Under the pieces are notes generated by a model, which worked only from the letters and a program-made list of their open reading frames with translations, was not told where the DNA came from and made no database searches. The translations under genes were made by a program, and so were the position numbers. This document shows positions 5,181 to 24,285 of a DNA stretch of 64,000 nucleotides, piece after piece (positions within the stretch are counted from its first letter, which is position 1; each line of letters opens with the position of its first letter). The stretch comes from Pirellulales bacterium (GTDB lineage: Bacteria > Planctomycetota > Planctomycetia > Pirellulales > UBA1268): the NCBI GenBank assembly GCA_049695995.1, contig JBAVTF010000102.1, positions 5,189 through 69,188 on the forward strand. Reading direction: 5' to 3'.

Positions 5181-5354
5181 ACGGGGTGCGATGTGTGCCA
5201 CTCACCAAGCCCGCCTCCGCGGGGTCCGTCGCGGGCCCCACGGTGGAGCTGGCGACTCATCCTATGTGGGCAGCAAACCCACGAATCAATGGCTTTTTGC
5301 AATTGATTCGGGCCCGTAACCCACGGAAGAGCAGTCTAGCGGGGGGTGCCGCCC

Positions 5355-5888: not shown

Positions 5889-8800
5889 GTGTACAACCAC
5901 GGCATGCTCGCCTTGCTTCCGCGCCGGCGTTCCACCGTCGCCAGCCTCGTTGTCAGCGTCGTCAGCGTCACTTGCCTCGGGCAGCAACTCGCTGCTCAGC
6001 AGGTGGTGCTTCCACCCGGGTTTGGCCCCCCCGCCGCACTCGGCACGCGACCGTCTCCCGCCTATGACGCCGCCTGCGCTGCGCTCTCAAGCGGCGCCAC
6101 GTCGCGGGCCCTCGACCTCGCTCGCAACGAATACAAGTCGTGCCTGCGAATCGGCGGCCAGCGCTGGATCGATTCGATCGCCGCGAGCGCGCTGATCGGT
6201 GAATGCCACTACGAACTTGGAGACCTGCGCGAAGCCGAGGCCGCCTATGCGGAAACGCTGCTGCTTGCCGCTGCCTACCCGCAGTGGCTGCTCGCCGTGC
6301 AGTTTCCCCAGCAGCAGCCGCGGGCCCGACAGCAGCCGCCGCAGGGCACCTGGGGCCGCAGCATGAGAAACACACGGCCCGCACAACTGCCTGATACGAT
6401 CGCGATTCGTCAGGCGGGCGCCGATGCCAAGCAGGTGCTGGAGCAAGGAGGCGTGCTCGTCGCGCCCTTCGACCAGTTGATCCGTCCCGCCGAGCTGATG
6501 CGGGCGACCGTGATCGCGATCTATCGGCAGTCCGAGATCCTCGGCCCGCTCGGGCGTGAAACACCGGCACTCGACCGCGTGGCCGCGGCGCTGGCGCAGC
6601 GGCCCGCGCAGCCGGCGCACTACGCCCAGTCGTGGATCGACATCGCACTCGGCACAGCGCTGTGGGCGCAGGGCAAGCCCGAGCAGGCCACGCCGCTGCT
6701 CACCCGCGGCCTCGTGATCGGTGACGGCCTCGACCATCAGCTCACGGCGTGGGGCTTGATCGTGCTCGGACGCATCGCCCTCGATGCCGGCCAGGCCGCA
6801 CAGGCCGCGACGTACTTCGAGGAGGCCACCTACGCCGCGGCCAACGAGGCAGACGGGCGTGCGCTCGAGGAGGCATTCGCGTACGTGCATGCCGCGCGTG
6901 CCGCCGCCGGCACCCGCGGCGTGCCCCCCTCGATCGCCGGTGCGATCACCTGGGCCGATCGCGACTGGCCAGTGCTGCACGAGCGGCTGGTGGCGATGCA
7001 GGCGGAGTGTCTCGCCACAGGCGGCGACGCCCGGGCGGCGGCGGCGGCCCTCAAGCAGATCGACGGCCGGCTGCTGCGGGCCGATCCGGGCCGCGGTCAG
7101 CTCGGGGCCGAGGTGGCCTACGCGCAGGCCATCCTCGGCTATGCCACGGCCGATGTGCGGGCGGGCGACACGGCCCTCGACGCCGCGATCGAGATCGCGC
7201 GGCCGCGCAGCCCACGGCTCTTTCAGGTGACGCGGCTCGTCGAGCTCGTGGTTCAGGGTTCCGGCAACCTATCCGACCGGCAGATCGACGCGTTGTTCGC
7301 CGACCTGCTCGCGCCGCCGGCGGACCGCGACTTCACGGCCAAGCCGCTCGACACGCTCGCCGTGATCTCGAGTGATCGGCACGCCGCCTTCGAAACCTGG
7401 CTCGCCGTCGCCACGCGCCGCGACTCCGATCGGGCCTTCGAGGCGGCCGAGGCGCTGGTCCGCGACCGCTGGCTTTCGGCGCGGCCGCTCGGAGGCCGGC
7501 GGCTCGCGATCGATCGGCTGCTTGCGGCCGATCCAGCGGTGCTCGAGCCCACCGCTGCGGCCCGCCGCGCGGCGCTCCTCGGGAATCGCCGCGACCTCGG
7601 CGCCACGCTCGATGCATTCGCCCTGCTCCGCGGCCGGCTCGCCGCTGACCTGCTGGCGGCCAAGCAGGCGCCCGCCGAGAAGCAGCTGGCCGGCAGCGAC
7701 GACGACTGGGCGAAGTATCAGGCACTGGCCGCCACGCGCACGGCGTTCGTCGCCGCGCTCTCTGCGGGCCGCGAGGCCACGGCGATCGATTTTCCACCGC
7801 TCACGCCGACGGCCGAGATTCGCACGCGCCTCGCCCCGAAGCAGCTCATCCTGTCGTTTCGCTGGACCCGCACAGGCCTGACGGCCGCGCTCGAATCCCG
7901 CGATCGCCAGGCGACCTGGGAGGTGCGGCAGGCGGCCGGCATTCCGGTTGAGGTCGCGCAGCTGGCGAAGTCGCTGTGCCTGTTCGACCCCGATGCGGCG
8001 GTCTCCACCGACAAGCTCGTGGCGGGCGGCTGGCGCGACTCGGCCGCGCAACTCGAGCGGATGCTGTTCGAGAACTCCCGCGTCACGCTCGCCGAGGGCG
8101 TCGACGAGCTCGTGATCGTGCCCGATGGCTGGCTGTGGTACGTGCCGTTCGAGCTGTTGCCGATCGCGTCGGGCAAGGGCGACGCGGGCCCCACGTTGCT
8201 CCGCGATGTCTGCCGTGTGCGGTATGCCCCCACGCGCAGCCTCGCCGTGGCACGGCTGCCGGCCGCGGCAGGCACGGGCCCGGTCGGCATTCACGTCGGC
8301 CGACTTGCCCGCGGCCCGAAAGCGACCAGCGAGGAGACGCTCGACCGTCTCACGCAGGGGGTCGATCGGGCGGTGCCGCTGCCGCTGCCCGAGAAACCTC
8401 CAGCGCCGCTCGTGGCCTCAGTGTTCGACGGCCTCGCCGTGCTCGATGATCTCGGCATGCTGGGCCCATCTCCCGCGGCATCACTCGTGCCCGGTGCGTC
8501 GGGCCGGGGCGGCATTCCGCTGGCCGACTGGCTCGCGCCGCCGCAGAAGCGGCCGGGCTTCGTGCTCTTACCGGGGATGCAGTCGGCATTCGCGCGGGGC
8601 CTGGAGAAGGGCAGCCTGCCGCCGCGTCCAGGCGACGATCTCTTCATGCCGGCCATCGATCTGCTCGCGGCCGGCGCCCACACGGCCGTGCTCGCCCGGT
8701 GGCGAGTCGGGGGCCGCACCACGACCGACCTCATGCTCGAGTTTCTGCGGGATGCGACGGTCACCGCCGCGGATGCGCCGCCGCCTCCGGCATCGGCGAG

Positions 8801-8992: not shown

Positions 8993-9820
8993 ATGGATGA
9001 TGCCTTGTTGCCCACGAGCCCGTCTGGAGTGGCCCTGCTTGCCGTCGCGTCGGCGGTGGCGGGCGCGGTGAATTCCGTTGCCGGCGGCGGCACCATCCTC
9101 ACGTTTCCGGTGCTTGCGGCGATTCTGCCCCCCGATCCTGGCCGCATGGTCGTGGCCAATGCGACGAGCACGATCGGCCTCTGGCCCGCCTCGGCCGTGG
9201 CAGCGTGGGCCTATCGCGGCGAGCGAACGCACCAACCGGCCTGGGTGCGGTGGATGATCCTGCCGAGCGTAGCGGGCGCAATCGTGGGCACGCTGCTTGT
9301 GCTGCGGCTGCCCCCCGCATGGTTCGACGCGGCCGTGCCGTGGCTGATCCTCACGGCTGCGATCTTGTTCAGCGTGCAGCCCCGCGTAGGCCAATCACTC
9401 CGCAACGGGCAGCCCGTTGCAGCGCAACGGGCCTACACGACGCAACGGCTCCTGCCCGCCTGCCTGTTGCAGTTCGCGGTGGCGATCTACGGCGGCTATT
9501 TCGGAGCCGGCATCGGCATTCTCATGCTCGCCGTGCTCGGCCTGCTCGGACTCGGCGATATCCACAAGCTCAACGGCGTGAAGAACGTGCTCGGCACGGC
9601 GATCAACGGTGTCGCGGCGGCCACGTTTGCCGCCGGCTCGCTCAGCGGGGCCCACGACGTGTCGTGGCCACTGGCAGCGGTGATGGCCGGGGCGGCGATG
9701 GCGGGCAGTCTGTCGGCATCGCTGGTCGCCCGGCGGCTGCCAGCAGCCCGGGTGCGGCGGTTCGTGGCCATCCTCGGATTCGCCCTGGCGGCCTACTATC
9801 TGTGGCGGCATTTCTCATAG
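8993..9820 (+). CDS. TauE/SafE-family (DUF81) anion exporter
   Basis: The N-terminal motif AGAVNSVAGGGTILTFPVL is repeated in the second half (GGYFGAGIGILMLAVLG). Roughly 8 hydrophobic segments. Confidence 0.85.
   Translation: MDDALLPTSPSGVALLAVASAVAGAVNSVAGGGTILTFPVLAAILPPDPGRMVVANATSTIGLWPASAVAAWAYRGERTHQPAWVRWMILPSVAGAIVGTLLVLRLPPAWFDAAVPWLILTAAILFSVQPRVGQSLRNGQPVAAQRAYTTQRLLPACLLQFAVAIYGGYFGAGIGILMLAVLGLLGLGDIHKLNGVKNVLGTAINGVAAATFAAGSLSGAHDVSWPLAAVMAGAAMAGSLSASLVARRLPAARVRRFVAILGFALAAYYLWRHFS
9386..9436 (+). repeat. 51-nt GTAGGC...GCCTAC palindromic element inside the TauE/SafE CDS, in frame
   Basis: GTAGGCCAATCACTCCGCAACGGGCAGCCCGTTGCAGCGCAACGGGCCTAC has the same termini and core (GGGCAGCCCGTTGC) as the intergenic copies at 14103-14153 and 25414-25465. 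Confidence 0.75.
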
Positions 9821-9835
9821 GGCCCCTCCCCACGC

Positions 9836-10720
9836 ATGCTCGTCCGCGCCGACCATCTCACGAAACGCTACGGCAGCTTCACGGCGCTCGACGGCTGCTC
9901 GCTGCACGTCGCGGAGGGAGACATCTTCGGGCTGCTCGGGCCCAACGGTGCCGGCAAGACGACGTTTCTGCGCACGCTCCTCGGCTTCATCACGCCCACG
10001 AGCGGCACAGCCACGGTCGCGGGCTTCGACTGCGTCAGGCAATCGCTGCAGGTGCGGGAACACACCGCCTATCTGCCAGGCGAGGCCCGGCTCTTCCGCC
10101 GGATGAACGGCTACGGCGTGCTCGACTTCTTCGCCGACCTGCGGCCCTCGTGCGGCCGCGGGCGGGCGGCGGCGATTGCCGACCGGCTCGGCCTCGACTG
10201 TTCGCGGCAGGTGGCCCGCATGAGCACGGGCATGCGGCAGAAGCTGGCGCTCGCCGTCGTGCTCGCCACCGATGCGCGGCTCGTGATTCTCGATGAGCCG
10301 ACGGCCAATCTCGACCCCACGGCCCGTGCCGAGGTGCTCGATCTCGTGCTCGAGGCCCGCGCGGCCGGCCGCACGGTGATCTTCTCGTCGCATGTGCTCT
10401 CCGAGGTGGAGGCCTCCTGCGACCGCGTCGCGATCCTGCGGGCGGGCCGGCTCGTCCACGAGCAGTCGATCCACGACCTGCGACGGAGTCATCGGATCAC
10501 CGCGCGGCTGGCTGGCCCGTTTGCCGGCGTGCCGGCGGCGCTAGTGGCGCACGTCGCGGTCGCTGGCCACGAAGGATCGCGGGTCGTCCTGGAGACGGCC
10601 GATTCACTCGCGCCGTTGCTCGGCTGGCTGGCCACGCTGCCGCTGGAGGAGATGCAGGTCGAGCCGGTCGGCCTCGGCGCGGTCTACGATCGTTTCCACC
10701 GGAATATCCACGCCTCATGA
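9836..10720 (+). CDS. ABC transporter ATP-binding protein
   Basis: Walker A GPNGAGKTT, signature MSTGMRQK and Walker B LVILDEPTANLD. ATGA overlap with the downstream permease gene. Confidence 0.9.
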   Translation: MLVRADHLTKRYGSFTALDGCSLHVAEGDIFGLLGPNGAGKTTFLRTLLGFITPTSGTATVAGFDCVRQSLQVREHTAYLPGEARLFRRMNGYGVLDFFADLRPSCGRGRAAAIADRLGLDCSRQVARMSTGMRQKLALAVVLATDARLVILDEPTANLDPTARAEVLDLVLEARAAGRTVIFSSHVLSEVEASCDRVAILRAGRLVHEQSIHDLRRSHRITARLAGPFAGVPAALVAHVAVAGHEGSRVVLETADSLAPLLGWLATLPLEEMQVEPVGLGAVYDRFHRNIHAS

Positions 10721-11550
10721 TCTTCAACACCGCCATCTGGAAGCGCACCTGGGGTGACCAGCGAGTGCTGGTGCTGTCGCTGGCCGCGCTGTGGGCCGTG
10801 TTCCCCTGGATCTACATCACGCTCTCGGCGCAGATCCAGATGTCGGCCTTCCAAGACGTGCTCCTGCGGGCGATCCCGCAGGAGTGGCAGAAGCTGTCGG
10901 GCGTGCCCTTCTCCGAGGTGGCCACGCATGCCGGCCGCGTGGCGCTGGCGTTCGTCGATCCCGTGGTGGTGCTCGCGGCCACGGTCTGGGGCATCACCCG
11001 CGGCAGCGATGCAGTGTCGGGGCAGCTCGAGCGGGGCACGATGGAGATGGTGCTGGCAGCGCCGGTGGGACGCGTGGCTGTGTTCGTCACCCAGGCCCTC
11101 GCCACCACGCTCGCGGCGGCCGTCTTGGTGGGCGTCCTGCTCGGCGGTGTGTATTCGGCCATCACCTTCGGCCCCTGGGCCGGCCAGGTCGACCCGGCTC
11201 GGTTCGTGCCCGCGGCGGCCAATGTGTTCGGCCTGATGGTCTGCATGGCGGGCATCACGGCCTGCGTGTCGGCAGCCGACAGCCACCGCTGGCGGACGAT
11301 CGGCATACTTTGTGGCTTCTACGTATTTTCAATCCTGGCGAAGCTCGTCGGGCGGATGAGCGAGTCGCTATCCTGGGTCGGCTACCTGTCGGTCTTCAAC
11401 GCATATGAGCCGCAGCGGCTCGTGTTTGGCGGCCTCGATTCCTGGCTGCTCGTGGCCCGCTATGACGGCGTGCTGCTCGGGATCGGGCTGGCCGCCTACG
11501 TGATCGGGGCGGCGATCTTCGCCCGCCGCGACCTCCCCGCGCCGCTGTGA
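10717..11550 (+). CDS. ABC-2-type transporter permease
   Basis: 277-aa polytopic membrane protein translationally coupled (ATGA) to the ATPase. Six hydrophobic segments. Confidence 0.7.
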   Translation: MIFNTAIWKRTWGDQRVLVLSLAALWAVFPWIYITLSAQIQMSAFQDVLLRAIPQEWQKLSGVPFSEVATHAGRVALAFVDPVVVLAATVWGITRGSDAVSGQLERGTMEMVLAAPVGRVAVFVTQALATTLAAAVLVGVLLGGVYSAITFGPWAGQVDPARFVPAAANVFGLMVCMAGITACVSAADSHRWRTIGILCGFYVFSILAKLVGRMSESLSWVGYLSVFNAYEPQRLVFGGLDSWLLVARYDGVLLGIGLAAYVIGAAIFARRDLPAPL

Positions 11551-11632
11551 ATGCAGTGGCTTTTTTTCAACGGTGTGCCGCATACTTTGGGGCGGGTATC
11601 CAAAGGTTCCGATCGAACAAAGGCGGGTTGCG

Positions 11633-13378
11633 ATGGTGCGACGAAGTGATGCAGATCTCCGGGTGTCCGCCGGATGCTTCCTGGCGTTGATCGTGTGCCT
11701 CATGTTCGCCGCCGGCGCAGTGCGGGCCGACGAGGCCGCAGCTGGGGTGGCCGACGAGACTCCGGGGCAGGCCGAGCTCGACAAGGCGATCGACGCCAAA
11801 CTCGGGGCCGACGATCTCGATGATTACGAGCGGGTGCTCGAGCATTGCAAGAAGGCGGTCGAACTCGGCCTCGACGCCGAATCGAAAAAGTTCGCCGACG
11901 AACTCTACACCGGCACGCTGGTGGATCGCGCCGGGATGATCGTCGACGCCATCTACGATTCGGTCCCGCCCAACCCGCAGTGGCCCCGAATGCGCGGATT
12001 TGCCCTGCGGGATCTCGGCGAAGTGATCGGCCGTGATCCGAAGCTGGGGCAGGCCCACCTGATGATCGCCCGCCTCGAGTCGCTGCCGCGGGGCAACCGT
12101 GAACGCGCCAAGGCGTCCGCCGAGAAGGCACTCGAACTGCTCGGCGACGATCGCCTCCAGATGGCGAAGGCCCACATCGTGCTGGCGGGCCTGGAGGAAG
12201 ACGACACCGCGAAGCAGGAGGAGCACTACGCGAAGGCGATCGAGTTCGCCCCGCGCGACGTCGAGATCCGCCGGACCCGCGGCCTGCACTTCCTGCTCGA
12301 AGACAAGTTCGACCGGGCCCGCGAAGATCTGCTGGTGGCGATCGAGGAGAAGCCCAGCGACGGCTCGCTCCACGAGGCGCTCGGCATGGCCTGCATGATG
12401 GGCGACAAGCGCGACGAGGCGAAAAAGGCATTCGACAAGGCGATCGAGCTGGAGCCCGATTCGAGCAGCCCGCTGCTGCAGCGGGCCAGGCTGTTGGCGG
12501 TGGAGGAGAAGTTTCCCGAGGCGATCGCCGACGTCGACCGCGCCCTCGACCTGGAGCCGGGCAATCCGGCGGCCCTCGTGCTGCGGGCTCGCGTGCATCA
12601 GCAGGCGGGCGATTCCGCTGAGGCGCTCGACGATGTCGAGTCGGTGCTCGCCGATGATCCCGACAACACCGTGGCCTTGGAACTGCGGGGGCTGATCGCG
12701 GCGGAGCGCGACGACTTCCCGAGCGCGATCCGGGATTTTCGGCGGCTGGTGGCGCGAAATGGCGACGATGCCGTGCTCGTGAGCCAGCTCGGCATGCTGT
12801 ATCTGGCCGCCAAGCAGCCGCGTGAGGCCGTCCGCCGCTTCACGCGGGCCCTCGAGATCGACGACGAGCATTTCGCCAGTCGCCGTGGCCGCAGCGATGC
12901 GTTGATCTCGATCGGCGACCATCCGGCGGCGATCCAAGACCTGGAGAAGGCCCACGCACTCAAGCCCGACGACACCGGTGTGCTCAACAACCTTGCCTGG
13001 CTGCTCGCCACATCACCCGACGACACGATCCGCGACGGCAAGCGGGCCGTTGAGCTGGCTCAGAAGGCCTGCGAGCTGACGGAGTGGAAGGAGCCCCACA
13101 TCATCAGCACGCTCGCGGCGGGCCATGCGGAGGCGGGTGATTTCGCCAAGGCACGCGAGTTCAGCCAGAAGGCGGTCGATGCGAGCGACGATTCCGACCA
13201 GGTCAAGGAGCAACTGAAGGGCGAACTCGCCAGCTACGAGGCGGAGAAGCCGTGGCGTGAGCGGCAGGAGATGGAGGAGGCGAAGCTCGACGAGCCCGGC
13301 GGCCAGGCGCGGAGTGAGTCGGAGCCCGAGGAGAACGACGAGCCGCCCCCCGCGCCCCGCCGGCCGTTCGACGAGTAG
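11633..13378 (+). CDS. secreted tetratricopeptide (TPR) repeat protein with acidic C-terminal tail
   Basis: Signal peptide (CFLALIVCLMFAAGAVRA) and many 34-aa TPR-type repeats (e.g. AIADVDRALDLEPGNPAALVLRARVH). The tail is Glu/Asp-rich. Start set at the ATG at 11633. Confidence 0.8.
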   Translation: MVRRSDADLRVSAGCFLALIVCLMFAAGAVRADEAAAGVADETPGQAELDKAIDAKLGADDLDDYERVLEHCKKAVELGLDAESKKFADELYTGTLVDRAGMIVDAIYDSVPPNPQWPRMRGFALRDLGEVIGRDPKLGQAHLMIARLESLPRGNRERAKASAEKALELLGDDRLQMAKAHIVLAGLEEDDTAKQEEHYAKAIEFAPRDVEIRRTRGLHFLLEDKFDRAREDLLVAIEEKPSDGSLHEALGMACMMGDKRDEAKKAFDKAIELEPDSSSPLLQRARLLAVEEKFPEAIADVDRALDLEPGNPAALVLRARVHQQAGDSAEALDDVESVLADDPDNTVALELRGLIAAERDDFPSAIRDFRRLVARNGDDAVLVSQLGMLYLAAKQPREAVRRFTRALEIDDEHFASRRGRSDALISIGDHPAAIQDLEKAHALKPDDTGVLNNLAWLLATSPDDTIRDGKRAVELAQKACELTEWKEPHIISTLAAGHAEAGDFAKAREFSQKAVDASDDSDQVKEQLKGELASYEAEKPWRERQEMEEAKLDEPGGQARSESEPEENDEPPPAPRRPFDE

Positions 13379-13394
13379 GGGCGCTGCCCTTAGT

Positions 13395-13451
13395 GGGCAT
13401 GTCACGCCGTGACATGCTGCCCTTATTCCGGTCACGGCGTGACCGGGCTAC
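13395..13451. repeat. composite palindromic element (two GTCACGSCGTGAC hairpins)
   Basis: GGGCATGTCACGCCGTGACATGCTGCCC plus CCGGTCACGGCGTGACCGGGCTAC. The 3' half is near-identical to 23369-23393. Lies between convergent genes. Confidence 0.7.
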
Positions 13452-13455
13452 TTTC

Positions 13456-14082
13456 CTACCGACGGCCAGGTTCACGGCCGGGGTCCAGCTCGCGCACCTT
13501 CGCGGCCGCGGCGCGGGCGGCGGCGATGTTGCCGGCGCGTTCCCAGCCCCGCATCGCGAGCAGCTGGGCAGACATCGCCATGTCGCGGCGGCCGTCGGCC
13601 TCAGCTCGCGCGCCCAACTGGCCTGCCATGTCGGCGAGCGCAGCGGCCCGATCGGAATCGAGCAGCCGAAGTGGGATGCCGGTGAGCGTGCGGTATTCCT
13701 CGGCCACGGCGTCGAAGTCGAAGCTGGCCGAGGCGAGCCGGATCGCACGAGAGACGGCAGCCGCATTGCCCGCATCAGCAGCCAGTTCGCGGGCCTCGTC
13801 GAACATCAGCCACTTGAGACGGCGGTCTGGCTCGCTGGCAGCCGCAGCGAGCAGCGCAGCCACTGCGGTGTTGGCGCCGGCGGGCGTTGACACGCTCGCG
13901 AGTTCGTCGCGGAAGCGTCGCCGCAATTCGGCGCGGGCGTCCACGAGTTCGTGCGGGCCCGGTGGCTCACCAGCGGCGGCCGCGGGGGCGAGCTGCCGCA
14001 TCCGCAGGCGGGCGGGTGCATCGGCGTCGTCCGCGCGAGCGGCGAGCGGGAGGAGTGCGATGAGGATGGCGGCACCACGCAT
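13456..14082 (-). CDS. hypothetical secreted Ala/Arg-rich protein
   Basis: Signal peptide MRGAAILIALLPLAARA. Last gene of the Wza-like operon. No recognisable domain. Confidence 0.5.
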   Translation of the reverse strand: MRGAAILIALLPLAARADDADAPARLRMRQLAPAAAAGEPPGPHELVDARAELRRRFRDELASVSTPAGANTAVAALLAAAASEPDRRLKWLMFDEARELAADAGNAAAVSRAIRLASASFDFDAVAEEYRTLTGIPLRLLDSDRAAALADMAGQLGARAEADGRRDMAMSAQLLAMRGWERAGNIAAARAAAAKVRELDPGREPGRR

Positions 14083-14102
14083 GCTCGTCAGTCTAGCAGC
14101 GT

Positions 14103-14153
14103 GTAGGCCCGTCACTCCGTGACGGGCAGCCCGTTGCGGAGCAACGAGCCTAC
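14103..14153 (+). repeat. 51-nt GTAGGC...GCCTAC palindromic element (intergenic reference copy)
   Basis: GTAGGCCCGTCACTCCGTGACGGGCAGCCCGTTGCGGAGCAACGAGCCTAC. It carries two internal hairpins (CCCGTCAC/GTGACGGG and CGTTGC/GCAACG) and 6-nt terminal inverted repeats. Confidence 0.8.
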
Positions 14154-14158
14154 GGGCA

Positions 14159-14587
14159 TCAGCGGGCGCCGGGGTAGTAGTGCGACATGTTGAGATACGT
14201 CGCGGAGTGGCCGGTCGGGCGGATGCTCTCGTTCACCTGCCGCGAGCTCGTGTCGCGCTGAATCTGCTGCACGCGGTTCTGCAGGTTGTTGATCTGTCGG
14301 GCCTGCTGCATGCCGCCGACGATCTGGCTCTCCTGGTCGAACCGCGGCTGGATGAGCTGCTGGTAGACGAGCGGGTTCACGCCGCCGGTAGTCGGATTTA
14401 CGCCGCCCCCCATGCCACCGCCACCCGGCTGCGCGAGCATCGTGTAGGGGCTCACGGTCGGCCGGCGGTAGGTGTTAGTGCTGGAAAACGGTAGCTGGCC
14501 GTTCTGCGCATGGGCGTCGACTGCCACGCCGGCCACGATCGCGGCCAGGGCGAGCGGTGCGGTGCGGATGAGAAGGCGGAAGCTCAT
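14159..14587 (-). CDS. hypothetical secreted Gly/Gln/Asn-rich protein
   Basis: Signal peptide MSFRLLIRTAPLALAAIVAGVAVDAHA, a Gly-rich segment (QPGGGGMGGGVNPTTGG) and a Gln/Asn-rich helix (QQARQINNLQNRVQQIQ). Lies immediately downstream of the Wza-like gene. Confidence 0.55.
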   Translation of the reverse strand: MSFRLLIRTAPLALAAIVAGVAVDAHAQNGQLPFSSTNTYRRPTVSPYTMLAQPGGGGMGGGVNPTTGGVNPLVYQQLIQPRFDQESQIVGGMQQARQINNLQNRVQQIQRDTSSRQVNESIRPTGHSATYLNMSHYYPGAR

Positions 14588-14659
14588 GGTCGTTGCTCCA
14601 GGGCCCATTCCACTTTCGTTCAATCGTACCGCGCTCACCTGGCCCGGGCCATCAGCCGG

Positions 14660-15952
14660 TCACTCCGGCAGTTCGTAGCCCGCGATCGCCATCTCCATCG
14701 CGGCCCGGACAGCGGCCTTCGCCAACGGCTTGTCGTGCAGCCAGGCGGCGAACTGCTCGCCGTGGGCGGCATAGGCCGTCTGCAGCCAGCTCGGAGCCTC
14801 CGTGAGCATCCAGGCCCGGAACACGAGCCACCGCGGGTCGTCCACGCCGTAGGCCTCGCGGGCCGTCCAGCAGAAGAACGTGCCGAACGGCACCGTGAGC
14901 GTCCGTACCATGCTCGAGCCGAGCAGGGTGAAGCCAAACATCCGCTCGAAGGGAGCCGTGATCTTGCCCACGATGCTGTCGAAGGCGACCCACGAATCCT
15001 GGGCGATGAACACGCGGTCACCCGGCAGGATCTGGTAGTTGGTGGCGGTCGCGCCCCCCTTCATGATCGACTCGATGTCCACGGGCAGGATCTGATCGCA
15101 GCCCACGCCCGAGGGGGCCGGCCGGGCGATCCAGATGTCCTTGCTGGAGAGCTTGGAGAGGCCGTTGATCTGGGCGATCGCGTCGAGCACGGTCTCGTTG
15201 CCCGTCACGGGGAAGCGGGCCACGTTGTCGCCGAAGCCCGCCCCTTCGGTCACCACGTAGTAGACCTTCGAGTTGTACGAAAACACGTCCACGCTCACGA
15301 GCGGCGCGTCGAGATACTGGCCAAGGTGCTGCTCGATCTTGGCCTTCGCCTCGTTGAGCGTCAGGCCCGTGATGTAGACACTCCCGTACGTGCCGAGATT
15401 GATCGTGCCGTCGGGGCCCACGAGGTGCTCGCCGGCGATCTGCTGCTGGCCAGCGGCCTGGGCGAGCGTGAGCGATACCTGCGGCTCGCGGAGGATTCGC
15501 TTCAGGTGGCGGAAGATCGAATCCTGAGCTTCTTCGAGCGACTGATTGCCCACCATCACCTTGCCGTAGGAGGGACCGAGGTCGAGCATGCCGCCCGGCT
15601 CCACCACGTAGATGCCGTTGATGGGCTGCTCGAGGAGCGTGCCTTCCACGATGACCTGCAGCGAATCGAACGACTGGATCCGGAAGGGCGGCTTGGGCAC
15701 GACGCGGAGCGCGTCCACGAGCAGGATGTCGGGCGGCTCGATCACATAGGCCGGCAGGGACACTTTCGCCAGTTCCTTGGCCGGCATCCGGCTCGGGTCG
15801 GTCGGCGGGCAGTTGGCCTGCTCCGACACCCGCTGGAAGTGCGACCGCTGCGGCCGGCCGTAGATGGACGTGCAGCCGGCGGACGAGAGCGTCGCGGCCA
15901 GGGCCACGAGCGTCACCGCCACCCGATTGTTTCGCGCTGCAAACCAGCCCAT
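14660..15952 (-). CDS. Wza-like polysaccharide export lipoprotein (Poly_export + SLBB domains) with C-terminal extension
   Basis: Lipobox (LAATLSSAGC), a Poly_export-type motif (YVIEPPDILLVDAL), and SLBB-like repeats (VGPDGTINLGTYGSVYITGLTLNEAKAKIEQHL; FPVTGNETVLDAIAQ). About 100 extra C-terminal residues. Confidence 0.85.
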   Translation of the reverse strand: MGWFAARNNRVAVTLVALAATLSSAGCTSIYGRPQRSHFQRVSEQANCPPTDPSRMPAKELAKVSLPAYVIEPPDILLVDALRVVPKPPFRIQSFDSLQVIVEGTLLEQPINGIYVVEPGGMLDLGPSYGKVMVGNQSLEEAQDSIFRHLKRILREPQVSLTLAQAAGQQQIAGEHLVGPDGTINLGTYGSVYITGLTLNEAKAKIEQHLGQYLDAPLVSVDVFSYNSKVYYVVTEGAGFGDNVARFPVTGNETVLDAIAQINGLSKLSSKDIWIARPAPSGVGCDQILPVDIESIMKGGATATNYQILPGDRVFIAQDSWVAFDSIVGKITAPFERMFGFTLLGSSMVRTLTVPFGTFFCWTAREAYGVDDPRWLVFRAWMLTEAPSWLQTAYAAHGEQFAAWLHDKPLAKAAVRAAMEMAIAGYELPE

Positions 15953-16145
15953 GCTCACACTCCCTGCGACCGGCATAGTCGCTGCGATCGGGAGTATCGG
16001 CAGATTCCGGCCGCAAACTTTGCCCGGCCTGCCTTCCAGACACGGTTCGGCGAAAAACCCGGCGGCCGGCCCGGTAGGTGGGGCGACTTGGGCGAAAACC
16101 GGGCGTAAACTTGCGTTTCAGAGAGGGTTCTCGAAGGGTCTCTGC

Positions 16146-16715
16146 GTGCCCATCCTCCCCAAACAGTGCGATTTCTATCCTGCCGACCTGCTTGACCTTC
16201 CGGCGAGTCAGGACGCCGGCGGGCCGGAGGCCACCCGCTGGCTCGTCTTCTACACACTCGCCCGACGCGAGAAAGACCTGATGCGGAAGCTGGAGGCGGC
16301 CCACATCCCGTTTTACGGGCCGATGATCCGCCGCCGGCTGCGATCCACCGGGGGCAAGACCCGCTCCTCCTACGTTCCGCTTTTCCCAGGCTACGTATTC
16401 TCACGCGTCGACGACGAGCAGAGGCGGGCGGCGTTGGCCACCAACACGATCGCCCGCTGGATTCCCGTCGGCGACGAGCGAATGCTTGTCAGCGACCTGC
16501 GGGCGATCCGGCAGCTCATCGACAGCGATCAGCCGCTCACTCCCGAGGCCCGACTGGAGCCAGGGCAGCCGGTCCGCGTGCGAACCGGGCCGCTCAAGGG
16601 CATCGAGGGCGTGGTGATCCGCCGGCGGGGCGAGGAGCGGCTGCTCGTGGCGGTGCGGTTCCTGAATCAGGGCGCGTCGATCGAACTGGAAGACATCGAC
16701 CTCGAACCGCTGTAG
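16146..16715 (+). CDS. specialised NusG paralog (RfaH/UpxY/LoaP-like antiterminator)
   Basis: NGN-like N-terminus (WLVFYTLARREKDLMRKLEAAHIPFYGPM...YVPLFPGYVFSR) and a KOW motif (GQPVRVRTGPLKGIEGVVI). GTG start at 16146, because no ATG lies upstream of the NGN domain. First gene of the sugar operon. Confidence 0.75.
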   Translation: MPILPKQCDFYPADLLDLPASQDAGGPEATRWLVFYTLARREKDLMRKLEAAHIPFYGPMIRRRLRSTGGKTRSSYVPLFPGYVFSRVDDEQRRAALATNTIARWIPVGDERMLVSDLRAIRQLIDSDQPLTPEARLEPGQPVRVRTGPLKGIEGVVIRRRGEERLLVAVRFLNQGASIELEDIDLEPL

Positions 16716-16731
16716 TGGAACGGAATCCCGA

Positions 16732-18699
16732 ATGATCGCACGTCTCACGTCAGCGGTGGTCGCGAAGCTCGAGGAGTGGTGGCGCGCGCGGCTGCCCACC
16801 CGCGAAGCGATCGTCGTCACGGCGCTGCTCGCCCTCATCTTCGAGGGCACGTATCTGGCCTCGTTCTTCATCCGCAGCGAACTGCTGCTGAAGGGCTCCG
16901 ACGCCCAGGCGATCCTTAACACGATCGTGGCCGTCGTCAGCCTGAAGCTGCTCGTCTTCTACTGGCGGGGCTTCTGCCACAAGCCGTGGCGGGCCGCCCG
17001 ATTCGCCGATTTGAACCGTCTCTTGCGGGCCGCCACGACGTGCCTGCTCGTATTCGTGGCCCTCAACTATTTCAGCGGCTACATCCCGGGCTGGATCCAG
17101 ATCCCGCGGTCGGTGCTGCTCCTCGACTGGGCCTTCACGCTCCTCGCTGTCGGCGGCATGCAGGCTGTCGCCCGCAGCCTCTACGAAGAGATCATGCCGA
17201 CCACCACCGTGGGCAACCAGAAGACGGTGCTCGTGATCGACGCCTCGCCGGCCGGTCGTGAGCTGGCCGCAGCGCTCGGCCAGCTCAACTCGCGGGGCTA
17301 CTTCGTGGCGGGACTGCTCGACGACGATCCCGACACCTACGGCCTGAACGTCGGGCGGGCCCGCGTGCTCGGACCCGTGCTGATGGCACCGGCCTGTGCC
17401 CAGCGGCTGCGGGCCTCCGAGATCGTGGTCCGCGAGGGAGCCATTTACGGGGCGCGGCTACGGGAGCTGTGCGACGCTTGCGCCGAGATCAACGTGCGGG
17501 TGTCGATCGCCGAGAACGTCACCGATCCCGACCTGTCGGCCGGCAGCCAGCCGACTACGGTTCAGCCGCTCGTCGTCCGCGCCCTCGAGCTTCGCGACCT
17601 CCTCTCCCGCCCCCAGGCCCGGCTCGATGACCACGACATCCACGTCTATCCGTTCCTGCATGGCAAGACGGTGCTCGTCACGGGTGCCGGCGGCTCGATC
17701 GGTTCGGAAATCTGCCGGCAGCTGCTGCGGTTCACGCCAGCGCGGATCGTGCTCGTGGAACGGTCGGAGGCAAGCCTGTTCGCGATCCACCACGAGCTGG
17801 TGCAGTCTGCCACGCTCGGCTCCACCGACCTGGTGCCGATCCTGTGCGACATCTCCCACGTCGATCGGGCCGAGCGGCTGTTCACCGACCACCGGCCGCA
17901 GGTCGTGATCCACGCGGCGGCCTTCAAGCACGTGCCGCTGATGGAGGCCCACCCGGTCGAGGCGATCGAGAACAACGCGCTGGCCACCGCCGCGCTGGCC
18001 GAACTGGCCGACGCACATGCCGTCTCAACGTTCGTCGCCCTCTCCACCGACAAGGCCGTCCATCCGTCGAGCGTGATGGGAGCGTCGAAGCTGGTGGCCG
18101 AGCGGTTCCTGCAGTCGTTCGGTGAGACGTCGACCACGCGGTTCGTGGCGGTGCGGTTCGGCAACGTGATCGGGTCGAGCGGCAGCGCCGTGCCGATCTT
18201 CACCGAGCAGCTCACCAAGCGGCTGCCGATCACGATCACGCACGAAGACGTGCGGCGGTATTTCATGACGATCACGGAGGCGGCGCAGCTCGTGCTCCTG
18301 GCCGGGGCCCTGCCTGGACGTGGCGGCACGTTCGTGCTGGAGATGGGCGAGCCGATTCGGATCGTGGAGCTGGTGTCGAGTCTCGCCTACGTGCTGCACG
18401 TGCCGCCTGAGCAGGTGCGGATCCGGTATTGCGGGCTGCGGCCCGGCGAGAAGCTCGACGAGGAGCTGTTTTTCGAAGACGAGCGGCGGGAGGCCACGTC
18501 GCATCCGCTGGTGATCCGGGCGGTCCGCGCGGCCCGGCCGCTCGACGAGGTGCGGCAGTGGATGGGTGAACTGAAGAGCGCGGTGTCCGGCCCGTCCGAG
18601 ACGGCCGGCCATACGCTCATGGACATCGTCACCAGCGATTGCAGCAGCCTCGTGCCTGTGGAGGCACCGGTGGGTCAGCCAGTGGAGCAACGCGCATGA
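16732..18699 (+). CDS. membrane-anchored NDP-sugar 4,6-dehydratase (CapD/WbpM/PglF family)
   Basis: Four N-terminal TM segments, then VLVTGAGGSIGSEICRQLL and STDKAVHPSSVMGASKLVAE (the Met-for-Tyr variant typical of PglF/CapD). Confidence 0.9.
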   Translation: MIARLTSAVVAKLEEWWRARLPTREAIVVTALLALIFEGTYLASFFIRSELLLKGSDAQAILNTIVAVVSLKLLVFYWRGFCHKPWRAARFADLNRLLRAATTCLLVFVALNYFSGYIPGWIQIPRSVLLLDWAFTLLAVGGMQAVARSLYEEIMPTTTVGNQKTVLVIDASPAGRELAAALGQLNSRGYFVAGLLDDDPDTYGLNVGRARVLGPVLMAPACAQRLRASEIVVREGAIYGARLRELCDACAEINVRVSIAENVTDPDLSAGSQPTTVQPLVVRALELRDLLSRPQARLDDHDIHVYPFLHGKTVLVTGAGGSIGSEICRQLLRFTPARIVLVERSEASLFAIHHELVQSATLGSTDLVPILCDISHVDRAERLFTDHRPQVVIHAAAFKHVPLMEAHPVEAIENNALATAALAELADAHAVSTFVALSTDKAVHPSSVMGASKLVAERFLQSFGETSTTRFVAVRFGNVIGSSGSAVPIFTEQLTKRLPITITHEDVRRYFMTITEAAQLVLLAGALPGRGGTFVLEMGEPIRIVELVSSLAYVLHVPPEQVRIRYCGLRPGEKLDEELFFEDERREATSHPLVIRAVRAARPLDEVRQWMGELKSAVSGPSETAGHTLMDIVTSDCSSLVPVEAPVGQPVEQRA

Positions 18700-19823
18700 C
18701 AGCTGGCTGGCGGGTGCCGTTCGTACGGCCCGATGTGCCGGCGTATGCGGAGGTGAGCGCGGCGATCGAGCGGGCCGTCTCGAGCGGCATGCTCACGAAG
18801 GGGCCGGAGCTAGCGGCGCTCGAGGCCGAGGCGGCGGCGGCGCTCGGTGTGCGGCACGTCGTCGGCGTGTCGAGCTGCACGATCGGCGTCGCGCTCGTGC
18901 TCAAGGCGATCGAGCCACGCGCGGGCCGTACGGAAATCATCCTTCCGAGCTTCAACTTCCTCGCGGCGCCCGGCGCCGTCGTGTGGGCCGGGTTCACGCC
19001 GGTATTCGTCGAGGTCGATCCCCACACGTTCACGATCGACCCCGCCGCGGCCGCCGCCGCGGTCACCGACCGCACGGCCGCGATCATGGCCTGCCACACG
19101 TTCGGCTGCCCGTGCGACGTGCCCGCCCTCGACGCGGTGGCCGTGCGGGCGGGCGTGCCGCTCGTCGTCGATGCCGCCCACGGCCTCGGCACGCAGCTGC
19201 AGGGTCGACAGGTGGGGGCCGGCGGACTCGCGCAAATCTTCAGCCTCTCCCCCACGAAGCTCGTCGTCGCAGGTGAAGGGGGCCTCGTGGCCACCGACGA
19301 CGACGCGCTCGCCGCCGCGGTCCGCACCGCCCGCGAATATGGCAACGACGGCCACTACGGCTGCGCGGTGCCCGGCCTCAACGGCCGGCTGCCCGAGATC
19401 TCCGCGATCCTGGCCCGGGCATCGCTGGCCCGGCTGCCAGACGTGGCCGCCCGCCGCCGGGCCGCGGCCGAGGCCTACAACGCGGAACTTACCAACCTGC
19501 CCGGTGTCGGCCTGCAGCGGATGCCCCCGGGGGCCACGAGCAGCTGGAAGGATTTCGTGATCACGATCGATGCGGAGCGGTTCGGCATGAGCCGCGACGC
19601 CGTTCGCCGCCGCCTGGCCGATGCGGGCGTCGACACGCGGGCGTATTATGATCCGGCCTGCCACCAGATGGAGGCGTTCCGCCGCTACGCGAGGCCGGGG
19701 CAGTCGCTGCCGATCACCGACCACCTCGCCGCCACGGCGTTGGCGCTGCCCCTCGGGGCGCATGTCACGGCCGACGTGGCACGGTCGGTGGCCCACGTGA
19801 TCCGCGCCGGCGCCCGCTCATGA
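18696..19823 (+). CDS. DegT/DnrJ/EryC1/StrS (PglE-like) PLP-dependent sugar aminotransferase
   Basis: PLP-lysine context IFSLSPTKLVVAGEGGLVATDD. ATGA overlap with the upstream dehydratase. Confidence 0.9.
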   Translation: MTAGWRVPFVRPDVPAYAEVSAAIERAVSSGMLTKGPELAALEAEAAAALGVRHVVGVSSCTIGVALVLKAIEPRAGRTEIILPSFNFLAAPGAVVWAGFTPVFVEVDPHTFTIDPAAAAAAVTDRTAAIMACHTFGCPCDVPALDAVAVRAGVPLVVDAAHGLGTQLQGRQVGAGGLAQIFSLSPTKLVVAGEGGLVATDDDALAAAVRTAREYGNDGHYGCAVPGLNGRLPEISAILARASLARLPDVAARRRAAAEAYNAELTNLPGVGLQRMPPGATSSWKDFVITIDAERFGMSRDAVRRRLADAGVDTRAYYDPACHQMEAFRRYARPGQSLPITDHLAATALALPLGAHVTADVARSVAHVIRAGARS

Positions 19824-20962
19824 AACCCGTCGAACAGCCAAACCTCTTCCCGTCGTTCGACTCGATCGAGGCGGTGCTCTGGCCGGCGGCCGCGCTGGCC
19901 GTGTTCGTGCTCACGGCGGTGCTCGTCGATCTCATGGTCATCCTCGCCGCGCGGTGGCGGCTGGTCGATCTCCCCAACCGCCGCAGCGCCCACGCGCTGC
20001 CCACGGCCCGGGGCGGCGGACTGGCGATCGTGCTCACGACGGCGCTGGCCTCGATCATGGTGGCGCTGCGGTGGCCCCCGGCCGCGTTTGCGATCCTCGG
20101 GGGCGTGATCGTCCCCTGTCTCGTGATCGCCGGGGTGGGGATCGTCGACGACATCCAGCCTCTCAAGGCGTCGCTGCGGCTGTTCATCCAGATCGGGGTC
20201 GCCGCGGCGATCACGGCCGCACTCGGCCCGCTCTCCACGATCGCGATCCCGGGGCTGCCGGTGCTCGAACTGGGCTGGGCGGGCTGGCCGCTCACGGTGG
20301 TCTGGATCGTGGGCATGACCAACGCCTTCAACTTCATGGATGGCTCCGATGGCATGGCAGCGCTCGGGGCCGTCGTGGCGGGCGTGGTGATGGCGGTGAT
20401 CGGCTGGCAACTGCGGATCCATCTCCCGCTGCTCCTCGCCGCCTTCGCGGCGGCGGCGGCGGGTGGATTCCTGGTCTTCAACTGGCAACCGGCCCGCGTC
20501 TTCATGGGCGACGTGGGCAGCGCGTTTCTGGGCACCTATCTGGCTGCGGTACCGCTGGCGTTTCCAGAGCCGCAGCGATCGCTCGTGTTCATTCCGATGG
20601 TGTTGGCACTGTGGCCCTACATCTTCGATCCATTCGTTTCGGTGCTGCGGCGAATCTACCACCGAAAGAGCCCGTTCGAGCCTCACCGAGAGTTCTTGTT
20701 CCATCGCCTGATCCGCAGCGACATCGGCCACGGGTTCGCGGCGCTGCTCTATGCGATGCTGGCATTGACGGGCGGGCTCGTGGGCATCCTGATGGTCGAG
20801 AATCTGCTGCCCGATGCAGTGCGGGCCTGCGGTCCGCTCGTCGTCATCGCGCTGGCGGGCGTACTGGCGTGGGCGATCGAGCGGCGGTGCACGCTCGTTG
20901 GGCTGCCGTCGGCGAGTGGAGCCGTCGCCGCGTCGGCGGCCGAACCGTCCACCACGGCCTAA
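19820..20962 (+). CDS. polyprenyl-phosphate HexNAc-1-phosphate transferase (MraY/WecA/WbpL family, GT4)
   Basis: Polytopic protein with NAFNFMDGSDGMAA and VFMGDVGSAFLG motifs. ATGA-coupled to the aminotransferase. Confidence 0.85.
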   Translation: MKPVEQPNLFPSFDSIEAVLWPAAALAVFVLTAVLVDLMVILAARWRLVDLPNRRSAHALPTARGGGLAIVLTTALASIMVALRWPPAAFAILGGVIVPCLVIAGVGIVDDIQPLKASLRLFIQIGVAAAITAALGPLSTIAIPGLPVLELGWAGWPLTVVWIVGMTNAFNFMDGSDGMAALGAVVAGVVMAVIGWQLRIHLPLLLAAFAAAAAGGFLVFNWQPARVFMGDVGSAFLGTYLAAVPLAFPEPQRSLVFIPMVLALWPYIFDPFVSVLRRIYHRKSPFEPHREFLFHRLIRSDIGHGFAALLYAMLALTGGLVGILMVENLLPDAVRACGPLVVIALAGVLAWAIERRCTLVGLPSASGAVAASAAEPSTTA

Positions 20963-20984
20963 GAAGTGACAAGGGCTTTCGACC

Positions 20985-21659
20985 ATGGCTGCGACGTCGC
21001 GCGCGAGTGAGGCCTTGCCACGGGAACCACACGGGTGGTATCCGACGGTCGTGAAGCGCGGATGCGACCTCATCGTGGCGGCTGCGCTGGTCGTCCTGCT
21101 CGCGCCGCTGATGGCGGCGGTTGCGCTGGCCGTGCGGCTCGTGCTCGGGCGGCCGGTCTTCCATCGCGACATGCGGGCCGGGCTCCACGGAAAACCTTTC
21201 GAGATCGTGAAGTTTCGGTCGATGGCCGAGCGGGTGGACGACGCCGGTCGGCTCTTGCCCGACGAACAGCGGCTCGGACTCTTCGGCCGGTGCCTGCGGG
21301 CCACGAGCCTCGACGAACTGCCGCAGCTGGTGAGCGTGGTACGCGGCGAGATGAGCCTGGTGGGGCCGCGTCCTCTCCCACTTCGCTATGTTGCCAGATA
21401 TTCGCCCCGACAGGCCACGCGGCTGCTCGTCCGGCCGGGACTCACCGGCTGGGCCCAGATTCATGGCCGAAACGCCCTCGACTGGGGCCCGAGGCTGGAA
21501 TATGACGCCCGCTACGTGGAAATTCTCGGGCGGTGGCATGCCCCGCTGGCCGATTGCTGGATCATTGTGGTCACCCTGCTCCAATTGATCGTTCAGGCCG
21601 TCACCGGCCGCGGCGTGGCGGCGCCCGGCTCGGCCACGATGCAAGAGTTTCAACCGTGA
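20985..21659 (+). CDS. small monotopic phosphoglycosyl transferase (bacterial sugar transferase, PglC/WbaP C-terminal type)
   Basis: KRGCDLIVAAALVVLLAPLMAAVALAV re-entrant helix, then KFRSM, DELPQLVSVVRGEMSLVGPRP and RPGLTGWAQIHGRN. Confidence 0.9.
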   Translation: MAATSRASEALPREPHGWYPTVVKRGCDLIVAAALVVLLAPLMAAVALAVRLVLGRPVFHRDMRAGLHGKPFEIVKFRSMAERVDDAGRLLPDEQRLGLFGRCLRATSLDELPQLVSVVRGEMSLVGPRPLPLRYVARYSPRQATRLLVRPGLTGWAQIHGRNALDWGPRLEYDARYVEILGRWHAPLADCWIIVVTLLQLIVQAVTGRGVAAPGSATMQEFQP

Positions 21660-21919
21660 GTCCGTCCGACGCCGTCGCCGACGCCATCCGCACCGTGCTT
21701 CGCGAGACCGGCCGCAGCCGCGATGCGATCGAGCCGCAGCAGCTGCTGGCCGCCGATCTCGGTCTCGACTCGCTCGACCTCGCGCAAGCGATCGTGCTCC
21801 TCGAGCGATCGCTCGGCGTCGATCCATTCCGCGACTGGTCCGCCGCCGCGCCGCGGCCGGCCGTCCGCACCGTCTCCGATCTCGTTGCCATCTACACGAC
21901 AGCCCTCGCCTCACCCTGA
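21656..21919 (+). CDS. acyl carrier protein
   Basis: 87 aa with the phosphopantetheine attachment motif LGLDSLDLAQ. The GTG start overlaps the upstream stop (GTGA). Confidence 0.8.
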   Translation: MSPSDAVADAIRTVLRETGRSRDAIEPQQLLAADLGLDSLDLAQAIVLLERSLGVDPFRDWSAAAPRPAVRTVSDLVAIYTTALASP

Positions 21920-21932
21920 GAGATTCAGCGCC

Positions 21933-23294: not shown

Positions 23295-23315
23295 GCCGCA
23301 TGCCCATCACTCCCC

Positions 23316-23393
23316 GTAGGCCCGTCACGCCGCGTGGGTCCGTCACGCGGTGACGGACATCCCCGTTTACCGGTCACGGCGTGACCGGGCTAC
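23316..23393. repeat. composite palindromic element (GTAGGC half-element plus CCGGTCACGGCGTGACCGGGCTAC module)
   Basis: GTAGGCCCGTCACGCCGCGTGGGTCCGTCACGCGGTGACGGAC...CCGGTCACGGCGTGACCGGGCTAC. Sits between the ligase stop and the SDR start. Confidence 0.7.
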
Positions 23394-23397
23394 CGTC

Positions 23398-24180: not shown

Positions 24181-24186
24181 TGTGCA

Positions 24187-24205
24187 CCGCACACGGAGTG
24201 TGCGG
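24187..24205. terminator. GC-rich hairpin between convergent genes
   Basis: CCGCACAC-GGA-GTGTGCGG. No U-tract follows, so the terminator role is tentative. Confidence 0.3.
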
Positions 24206-24255
24206 ACTACGGTTGCATGGGCGCACCCTCGCCCGCCGGTATGATCTCCGTGGAT

Positions 24256-24276
24256 GTGCAGACTGGCAGTCTGCAC
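24256..24276. repeat. perfect 21-nt palindrome GTGCAGACTGGCAGTCTGCAC
   Basis: 10+1+10 palindrome read directly, 10 nt downstream of the stop of the minus-strand epimerase gene. Confidence 0.5.
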
Positions 24277-24285
24277 ACCGCCCGC

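Follow-up and report, generated by a model that had tools for sequence, protein, structure and literature searches.

An in-frame GTAG-tagged REP doublet in the central loop of a TauE/SafE transporter gene of a Pirellulales bacterium

Introduction

How a palindromic repeat comes to lie within the reading frame of a membrane transporter gene, and whether it is a passenger or a part of the protein, is the question raised by a 64,000-nucleotide stretch of a Pirellulales bacterium (contig JBAVTF010000102.1 of assembly GCA_049695995.1, positions 5,189 to 69,188; the whole stretch is hereafter called the window). A 51-nt element at 9386-9436 on the plus strand of the window is contained in a gene for a TauE/SafE (TSUP-type) transporter. 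The initial annotation, made from the sequence alone, described it as a palindrome adding 17 residues to the protein in the manner of the Rickettsia palindromic elements (RPEs). The analysis reported here showed that the element belongs to the GTAG-tagged doublets built from repetitive extragenic palindromic (REP) units, termed REPINs. Most probably, a REPIN copy with an open frame entered a tolerant loop of the transporter and has been kept there as a passenger that is translated, while selection removes other coding insertions.

The host gene and the in-frame element

The TauE/SafE gene (8993-9820, plus strand) encodes 275 aa and is intact, with both sides of the insert conserved, and Pfam PF01925 matches its product in a single stretch (residues 16-268, E 2e-40). 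The distance from the ATG to the element (9386 − 8993 = 393 nt) equals 131 codons, and the element is thus codon-aligned with the start codon. Translation runs free of stops through ...QPR-VGQSLRNGQPVAAQRAY-TTQRLLPAC..., in which the insert forms residues 132-148, and this bears out the annotated position on a codon boundary 393 nt from the start. A tryptic peptide spanning the insert, NGQPVAAQR, is predicted from the sequence.

Proteins of the TSUP/TauE family are built from two homologous halves of four helices each. Among the 7417 TauE homologs retrieved, invariant residues occurred on both sides of the loop, and AlphaFold modeling on the ortholog alignment yielded a TauE model of 4+4 helices (pTM 0.84), in agreement with the annotated position in the central loop between the two halves. 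The insert was placed between predicted helices 108-137 and 142-170, and the lowest internal confidence of the model fell in blocks 131-140 (67) and 141-150 (62). According to this model, the insert site would fit a tolerant loop connecting the four-helix halves. The further claim that 17 residues had been added was only half right: 17 residues are encoded in frame, but the loops of orthologs free of REP sequence have about the same length, and the word "adds" finds no support.

The sequence of 9386-9436, GTAGGCCAATCACTCCGCAACGGGCAGCCCGTTGCAGCGCAACGGGCCTAC, proved to be a 51-nt palindrome of the form GTAGGC...GCCTAC, as annotated, and its ends are common to the copies at 14103 and 25424. Three occurrences of GTAGGC-N25-55-GCCTAC, at 9386, 14103, and 25424, were counted in the window, against 0.05 expected from shuffled sequences. 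The 14-nt core GGGCAGCCCGTTGC, which the annotation had held to be common to the intergenic copies, was indeed found in three exact matches in the window, and with up to two mismatches it was found in 10, against 1.2 expected. An nhmmer profile of 51-nt doublets from related genomes matched the entire stretch 9386-9436 (41.7 bits, E 6e-12). A repeat search united 9378-9436, 14095-14153, and 23783-23841 in one family, which 25437-25475 joined via an overlapping family, and displayed 25424-25475 as the inverted-repeat partner of the three.

Anatomy of the REP family

The element is composed of two inverted 25-nt units placed tail to tail with 1 nt between them, each unit comprising GTAG, GC, and a 9-bp stem with a 3-nt loop. 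In 738 kb of DNA (the window plus related DNA), 280 such units were counted, including 80 copies of type A (GTAGGCCCGTCACTCCGTGACGGGC), 58 copies of type B (GTAGGCCCGTTGCTCCGCAACGGGC) plus 25 of its CCT variant, and 20 copies of type C (GTAGCCCGGTCACGCCGTGACCGGA). What separates type A from type B is a CA/TG change on one arm, compensated by TG/CA on the other, so that the pairing of the stem is preserved. The 51-nt doublet is a tail-to-tail heterodimer of A, 1 nt, and inverted B, and it is the commonest doublet (37 of 73), followed by a class of 60 nt (n = 11). The canonical 51-mer folds into one long hairpin, with −41.6 kcal/mol (z −9.5) as RNA and −22.9 as DNA. The bases 5' of GTAG are C-rich, with C at position −1 in 78% of the units.

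The 198 intact units of the related loci were selected by a pattern that included GTAG, and their heads alone prove nothing; three window copies found by the core alone, with a query lacking GTAG, all ended in GTAGGC/GCCTAC. Since the GTAG head, the hairpin anatomy, and the inverted doublets match published descriptions (PMC3733652, PMC3116915), the element is assigned to the GTAG-tagged REP doublets.

Read from the sequence, the canonical 51-mer equals 17 codons and is open in two of the six frames, one on the A-to-B strand, encoding VGPSLRDGQPVAEQRAY, and one on the opposite strand, encoding RPVAPQRAARHGVTGL. The closed frames have TAG in phase or meet the TGA of GTGACGG. Compared with the canonical 51-mer, the TauE copy differs at 6 positions. 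The hairpin of its left unit (9386-9410) has decayed, and the type B unit on its right (9412-9436, minus orientation), GTAGGCCCGTTGCGCTGCAACGGGC, is intact. Its RNA fold reaches −25.6 kcal/mol versus −41.6 for the canonical form, and the TauE-loop copy in the window is slowly decaying.

Turnover of the array in the TauE loop

The closest relatives of the TauE protein are 81-92% identical by BLASTP and 87-95% identical in the alignment. In syntenic ortholog loci (related loci carry L numbers here, and ortholog proteins P numbers), the gene order is CHAT-TPR protein, TauE, ABC ATPase, and ABC permease, and the flanking sequence is collinear in seven TauE loci. The ortholog proteins are conserved on either side of the central loop, and the loop itself is highly variable. 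In the window, it holds one A unit, which is decayed, and one B unit, which is intact. In L002, the exact canonical 51-mer comes after a partial A unit. L001 has an A unit together with a GTGGGCCAGTCAC unit and an inverted C unit, L004 has a GTAGTCCAGTCAC unit with a C-like unit, and the units of L007 are decayed. All these versions, from at least five related genomes, are in frame and free of stops.

On the left side, the arrays of the window and L004 begin directly after QPR, and L001, L002, and L007 retain eight extra loop codons (YVVRALQA); on the right side, each lineage has a junction of its own. No REP sequence was found in the TauE loop of L005 and L006, whose proteins are 83-84% identical, nor in that of P0015, P0016, P0019 (77%), and all aligned orthologs of 65-70% identity. 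These REP-free loops are unrelated in sequence to the REP-bearing ones and of about the same length. Identical REP-bearing TauE proteins occur on several contigs (P0006 on 5 and P0012 on 2).

The prediction that alignment of TauE orthologs would display a clean indel of 17 aa did not hold, and a clean 17-aa insertion in TauE was rejected, in view of the conserved loop length and the lineage-specific junctions. The TauE loop is a site of repeated REP turnover in which the ancestral loop sequence has been lost. The reading of the element as an in-frame repeat survives the comparison all the same, as the repeat-less orthologs (P0015, P0016, P0019, and the 65-70% set) lack the 17 residues.

Copies in other genes

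A second in-frame copy was found in the window at 23789-23841 on the plus strand, within a gene for a short-chain dehydrogenase/reductase (SDR) resembling 3-oxoacyl-ACP reductase (FabG-like; 23398-24180, plus strand). This REPIN is decayed, with both GTAG heads lost (GGAG and CGAC), and it encodes PGGPSRRDGQSVAEQPTD; nhmmer detected it at 23793-23839 with 42.6 bits, and its RNA fold (−21.2 kcal/mol) is no better than that of shuffled sequence. The insert lies in the turn before the ITVISS strand and splits the Pfam SDR matches of the protein into 4-125 and 148-259, and the best solved homolog (PDB 4yxf) has a turn of 4 residues where the window SDR has 26. The tryptic peptide predicted to span the insert is DGQSVAEQPTDNLSITVISSVVASR.

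The SDR orthologs P0127-P0130 (240-244 aa, 90-93% identical) are devoid of the insert segment. P0122 and P0123 carry PVGPSLRDG(L/Q)SVAEQQTY, and P0124 carries three units; the protein is 244 aa long when empty and 260 aa when filled. On the DNA level, the empty L095 and the filled L096 differ by a 51-nt REPIN and small junction changes, and no target-site duplication was detected between these two sites. L095 keeps family units just outside its SDR gene despite the empty allele, and the SDR insert is therefore polymorphic among genomes that carry REPs. Immediately upstream of its SDR gene, L095 encodes a HicA/HicB toxin-antitoxin pair (324-814); at that position, the window has an ORF of 523 aa (21723-23294).

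The ABC ATPase adjoining TauE provides a further case. It has 294 aa in the window (9836-10720, repeat-free), L002, and L004. The L001 and L007 proteins have 315 and 308 aa, respectively, and in both genes a REPIN is located five codons before the stop (L001 11763-11820 and L007 2528-2574; YDRFHR-AGPSLRDGQSELPVAEQRAY-GKQHTP*). L001 has preserved the final residues as well as the ATGA through which the gene overlaps the permease gene downstream. Clean presence/absence indels are a feature of the SDR and ABC ATPase genes and not of TauE.

Two other genes carry the family in their frames. A group 1 glycosyltransferase (PF00534, 2e-21) in L093, from the sister metagenome-assembled genome (MAG) GCA_945890755.1, contains an in-frame array of B units (5243-5334, approximately residues 65-97) that reads VGPLLRNGLSLRPVGPLLRNGLSPSRSAGPTG. 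For a PEP-CTERM-like protein in L062, from another MAG, the frame reads through a tail REPIN (7797-7847) directly after the C-terminal membrane anchor, a TGA-to-CGA change having opened it.

Census and distribution of the family

When one genome per species was scanned with GTAGGCCCGTYRCNNNGYRACGGGC, at least 87 stretches of 8 kb were returned. Three MAGs account for nearly all of the matches listed: GCA_945890755.1 (contigs CAMDDA01), JAPOJV01, and JBJTIE01 (named Planctomycetaceae). For the census, an nhmmer profile of the 51-mer was run over 588 kb of pattern-derived loci, and genes were predicted with a simple codon-usage caller (about 86% coding). Of 169 matches, 126 were intergenic, 38 touched predicted gene ends, and 5, in three genes, were internal. 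Repeat copies are strongly depleted from coding DNA, with about 3% internal versus about 86% coding. Every internal copy inspected reads on in frame without a stop, and where the frame was read, GTA forms a codon. With coding copies in the SDR, the ABC ATPase (two relatives), and the glycosyltransferase, the in-frame-repeat reading holds beyond TauE.

In the window, nhmmer located four doublets and three singlet clusters, all within the first 26 kb. The family copies are confined to 9386-25475, and the other 38 kb gave no match at nhmmer E = 0.1. Rfam had no match at gathering thresholds anywhere in the window. A search of 5.8 billion proteins with a 50-aa concatenation of three open-frame peptides returned only 2 candidates and one 47-aa match.

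The intergenic copies of the window show the family outside genes. The REPIN at 14103-14153 (plus strand; nhmmer 60.8 bits), between two minus-strand genes, is near canonical in its arrangement of A, 1 nt, and inverted B, and it folds as RNA with −34.7 kcal/mol (z −6.7). Its orthologous site in L001 holds a partial unit (15284-15314), and the site between the same gene pair in L002 (15159-15289) holds an array with three matches, two partial and one a full 51-nt doublet. REP sites are thus retained at orthologous positions, with differing numbers of units. A REPIN of 52 nt in the opposite orientation (25424-25475, minus strand; 50.4 bits) lies between divergently oriented genes. A REP singlet cluster at 13393-13451 includes the type C unit GTAGCCCGGTCACGCCGTGACCGG (13428-13451, minus strand). 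The SDR gene is bordered by a REP cluster directly upstream of its start codon (23316-23393, comprising a GTAG unit at 23316 and, in minus orientation, a type C unit at 23370-23393) and by the singlet GTAGTCCGCACACTCCGTGTGCGG directly downstream of its stop codon (24187-24210, minus strand).

Several organism labels among the matches deserve attention. GCA_945890755.1 (L002 and L008-L094; CAMDDA01 with one contig CAMDDJ01) is labeled 'Candidatus Kuenenia stuttgartiensis isolate MiE-22jul19-122', and it includes contigs syntenic with the window. Its TauE is 81% identical by BLASTP, the contig checked (L041) has 67% G+C, and the closest named TauE homolog belongs to a 'Planctomycetaceae bacterium'; the organism label looks wrong. 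Canonical 51-nt doublets were also present in L063, L076, and L080 (CAYQCU01, a MAG of 'uncultured Bifidobacterium sp.') on contigs of 68-71% G+C, and doublets on Bifidobacterium-binned contigs suggest mis-binning or contamination. A single unit match was recorded in L035, a 1.1-kb contig of Actinacidiphila cocklensis.

A RAYT-like gene

REPINs are non-autonomous and are thought to be spread by tyrosine transposases associated with REPs (RAYTs). A RAYT-like ORF of 223 aa with HVHVL and YIAGNP motifs was found in the sister MAG at L041 2864-3532 (CAMDDA010000105.1, minus strand). It scored 23.3 bits with Pfam Y1_Tnp (cut-off 23) and 63 bits with NCBIfam REP_Tyr_transpos (E 2.8e-17), below the curated cut-off of 80. 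Family REP doublets of 60-61 nt flank the ORF on both sides, and they share an 11-nt spacer (TTTGCGGATGG / TTTGCGGATAG) in contrast to the 1-nt spacer of the common 51-mer. The scan for RAYT motifs found none in the first ortholog loci, and its extension to more loci found the L041 gene only. A scan of metagenome contigs for relatives of this gene returned distant ones throughout (at most 41% identity), and the short flanks of the four closest (L097-L100) held no GTAG hairpins; the RAYT-REP link thus rests on one locus.

Origin and persistence of the in-frame copies

These results are consistent with a path in which a REPIN, two inverted REP units folding into one hairpin, would have landed in, or been copied into, the cytoplasmic-type central TauE loop that joins the four-helix halves. 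Copies that reach a tolerant surface loop with their frame open would spare the gene, survive, and be translated as approximately 17 extra residues, and other coding insertions would be purged by selection, which would account for the about 97% of copies not contained entirely within a gene. Once in place, the array would keep changing by gain, loss, and swapping of units and by deletion of neighboring loop sequence, as at the intergenic sites. The element is presumably moved by a RAYT, and the insert peptide is probably neutral. The presence and absence of copies in the SDR and ABC ATPase genes among family-bearing genomes would bear indirectly on mobility.

Several points weigh against this account. 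Gene conversion or recombination between REPs could produce turnover without transposition, and movement itself is inferred. The filled and empty TauE sites do not differ by a clean insertion, and for this reason the original insertion event is not reconstructable. That the insert is translated is read solely from conservation. The RAYT candidate of L041 is barely at the Pfam cut-off and under that of NCBIfam, and a regular-expression scan found neither RAYT motifs nor such a gene within the 64-kb window. In the census, the gene caller was crude, the choice of loci by exact pattern undercounts decayed copies, intragenic ones included, and the contigs derive from short-read MAGs. Differences in array size between short-read MAGs could partly reflect assembly collapse, but the differing junctions and unit types are not explicable in this way.

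Might the repeat instead have been put to use, its hairpin pausing translation between the two halves, its turnover varying the loop, or its peptide serving a function? The presence of arrays in the same TauE loop of at least five related genomes, always in frame, the exact canonical 51-mer in the L002 loop, and the length of exactly 17 codons with two open frames are what such a role would lead one to expect. Against it, the TauE orthologs of 77-84% identity and all more distant ones aligned are repeat-free, and the arrays vary in unit type, number, and junctions, so that no particular peptide or structure is conserved. The folds of the intragenic copies in the window are weakened (−25.6 and −21.2 versus −41.6 kcal/mol), that of the SDR copy to about the level of shuffled sequence; the host proteins (transporter, SDR, ABC ATPase, and glycosyltransferase) are unrelated, and the orthologous intergenic sites undergo the same turnover. 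Such a use is accordingly improbable. The same low credence applies to the related idea that loops act as landing pads, where REP/RAYT turnover rewrites the peptide or the hairpin pauses translation between the transporter halves, and the repeat would be no mere passenger. Candidates for such pads in this lineage are the central loop of TauE, the turn that precedes the ISS strand in the SDR, and the tail of the ABC ATPase.

It is very unlikely that the in-frame position is an artefact of a pseudogene, of two half-size genes, or of metagenome misassembly. A split is conceivable for a protein family of two homologous four-helix halves, and every sequence set beside the window comes from a metagenome assembly, where repeats are difficult to resolve. 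However, the ORF is uninterrupted, with one Pfam stretch over 16-268, and its downstream half continues in the same frame, strongly conserved in every ortholog whatever the array. The REP-bearing proteins recur identically on several contigs (P0006 and P0012, as noted above), the flanks are collinear in seven loci, and the same pattern appears in three other genes. A split or pseudogenised TauE was rejected on the continuity of ORF, Pfam match, and downstream conservation.

Close to refuted is the proposal that the 17 residues are an ancestral or convergent part of the loop and that the resemblance to intergenic copies is secondary, for example through copies derived from the gene. The similar length of REP-free loops would agree with it, but these loops are unrelated in sequence, and the element matches the family consensus across all 51 nt, both GTAG heads included. 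The family also counts well over 100 copies in related genomes, and relatives hold different family members in the same loop.

That the element is a true RPE has next to nothing in its favor beyond RPE-like residence in frame within genes, as the host genome is of Planctomycetaceae type, a candidate RAYT-like gene is associated with this GTAG family, and the tag differs from the CGTC of RPE-4 and RPE-6, RPE-1 being described as a longer palindromic insertion (PMC3733652). RPE membership was rejected on the differing tag, the 25-nt unit, and the 51-nt doublet, which set the element apart from the descriptions in PMC3733652.

Entry of a REPIN into a tolerant loop and its persistence there as a translated passenger remains the preferred reading. 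It offers a multi-genome example of a selfish hairpin repeat that would reside inside working genes only in tolerant loops and protein tails, with the same coding site rewritten repeatedly among close relatives, and it would extend the REP/REPIN-RAYT system to uncultivated Planctomycetaceae. For annotators and modelers, it supplies a reason for odd low-confidence inserts of 17-33 residues (VGPSLRDGQPVAEQRAY and variants) in conserved proteins. The series of empty site, one unit, array, and decayed copy forms a natural set for studying how inserts originate and fade.

Comparison with known systems

The likeness to RPEs drawn in the initial annotation held for in-frame residence, which is shared by the copies in TauE, SDR, ABC ATPase, and glycosyltransferase, and not for membership, as the element is a GTAG REP doublet instead. 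Both are selfish palindromic repeats that lie in frame in functional genes and provide an extra peptide where the protein tolerates it. The CGTC tag (RPE-4 and RPE-6), the longer size (RPE-1), and the different host of RPEs leave an analogy only. The CGTC REPs, to which RPE-4 and RPE-6 are assigned, are apparently without a dedicated transposase (PMC3733652).

[quoted passage not shown] The hairpin-plus-GTAG architecture found here is, unlike theirs, typical of the world of IS200/IS605-like (Y1) elements. Assignment to MITEs was rejected: IS-derived terminal inverted repeats are lacking, no target-site duplication is visible at the empty and filled SDR sites, and the termini are the GTAG heads of two hairpins.

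Closer parallels are provided by the REPINs and RAYTs (Bertels & Rainey 2011, PMC3116915; Ton-Hoang et al. 2012, PMC3333891). The inverted doublet folding into one long hairpin and the predominance of this presumably replicative doublet are common to both, and the sister MAG holds a candidate RAYT-like HUH/Y1 gene flanked by the repeats. Recombinant E. coli RAYT was reported to cleave REP DNA at GTAG in vitro (PMC3733652, with PMC3333891 as one source paper). The REPINs of P. fluorescens have spacings of 71 and 110 bp, whereas the doublet here is far more compact (51 nt with a 1-nt spacer), and the RAYT candidate is divergent, with 63 bits versus the NCBIfam REP_Tyr_transpos cut-off of 80. REPINs were described as extragenic populations, and here several copies appear to lie in translated frames.

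The GTAG REPs surveyed by Di Nocera, De Gregorio & Rocco (2013, PMC3733652) are the nearest relatives as judged from the features described for their 24 families. Their survey recorded GTAG REPs in the Planctomycetes-Verrucomicrobia-Chlamydiae (PVC) superphylum (Planctomycetes and Verrucomicrobia), including GTAG-19 of Opitutus terrae, which forms tail-to-tail heterodimers with a spacer of 1-2 bp. Most of these REPs were intergenic, and a minority, singles and dimers alike, lay wholly inside real ORFs; the table of intragenic REPs lists 70 occurrences for 'terrae' and peptides such as VGPALAAGREQRARLPAAGERPPY, and in recB of Xanthomonas, different REPs occupy about the same gene site in related species (PMC3733652). 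The family described here shares the GTAG head, the 9-bp stem (5-13 bp in their range), sub-families with complementary stems, heterodimers with a 1-2 bp spacer, and a frame starting at the GTA codon (VGPALAAG... in theirs and VGPSLRDG... here). As in-frame GTAG REPs, PVC dimers included, were catalogued in 2013 (PMC3733652), nothing is changed in principle. The hosts differ in being uncultivated Planctomycetaceae MAGs, and where the survey emphasized DNA-repair genes, the hosting genes here encode a transporter, an SDR, an ABC ATPase, and a glycosyltransferase.

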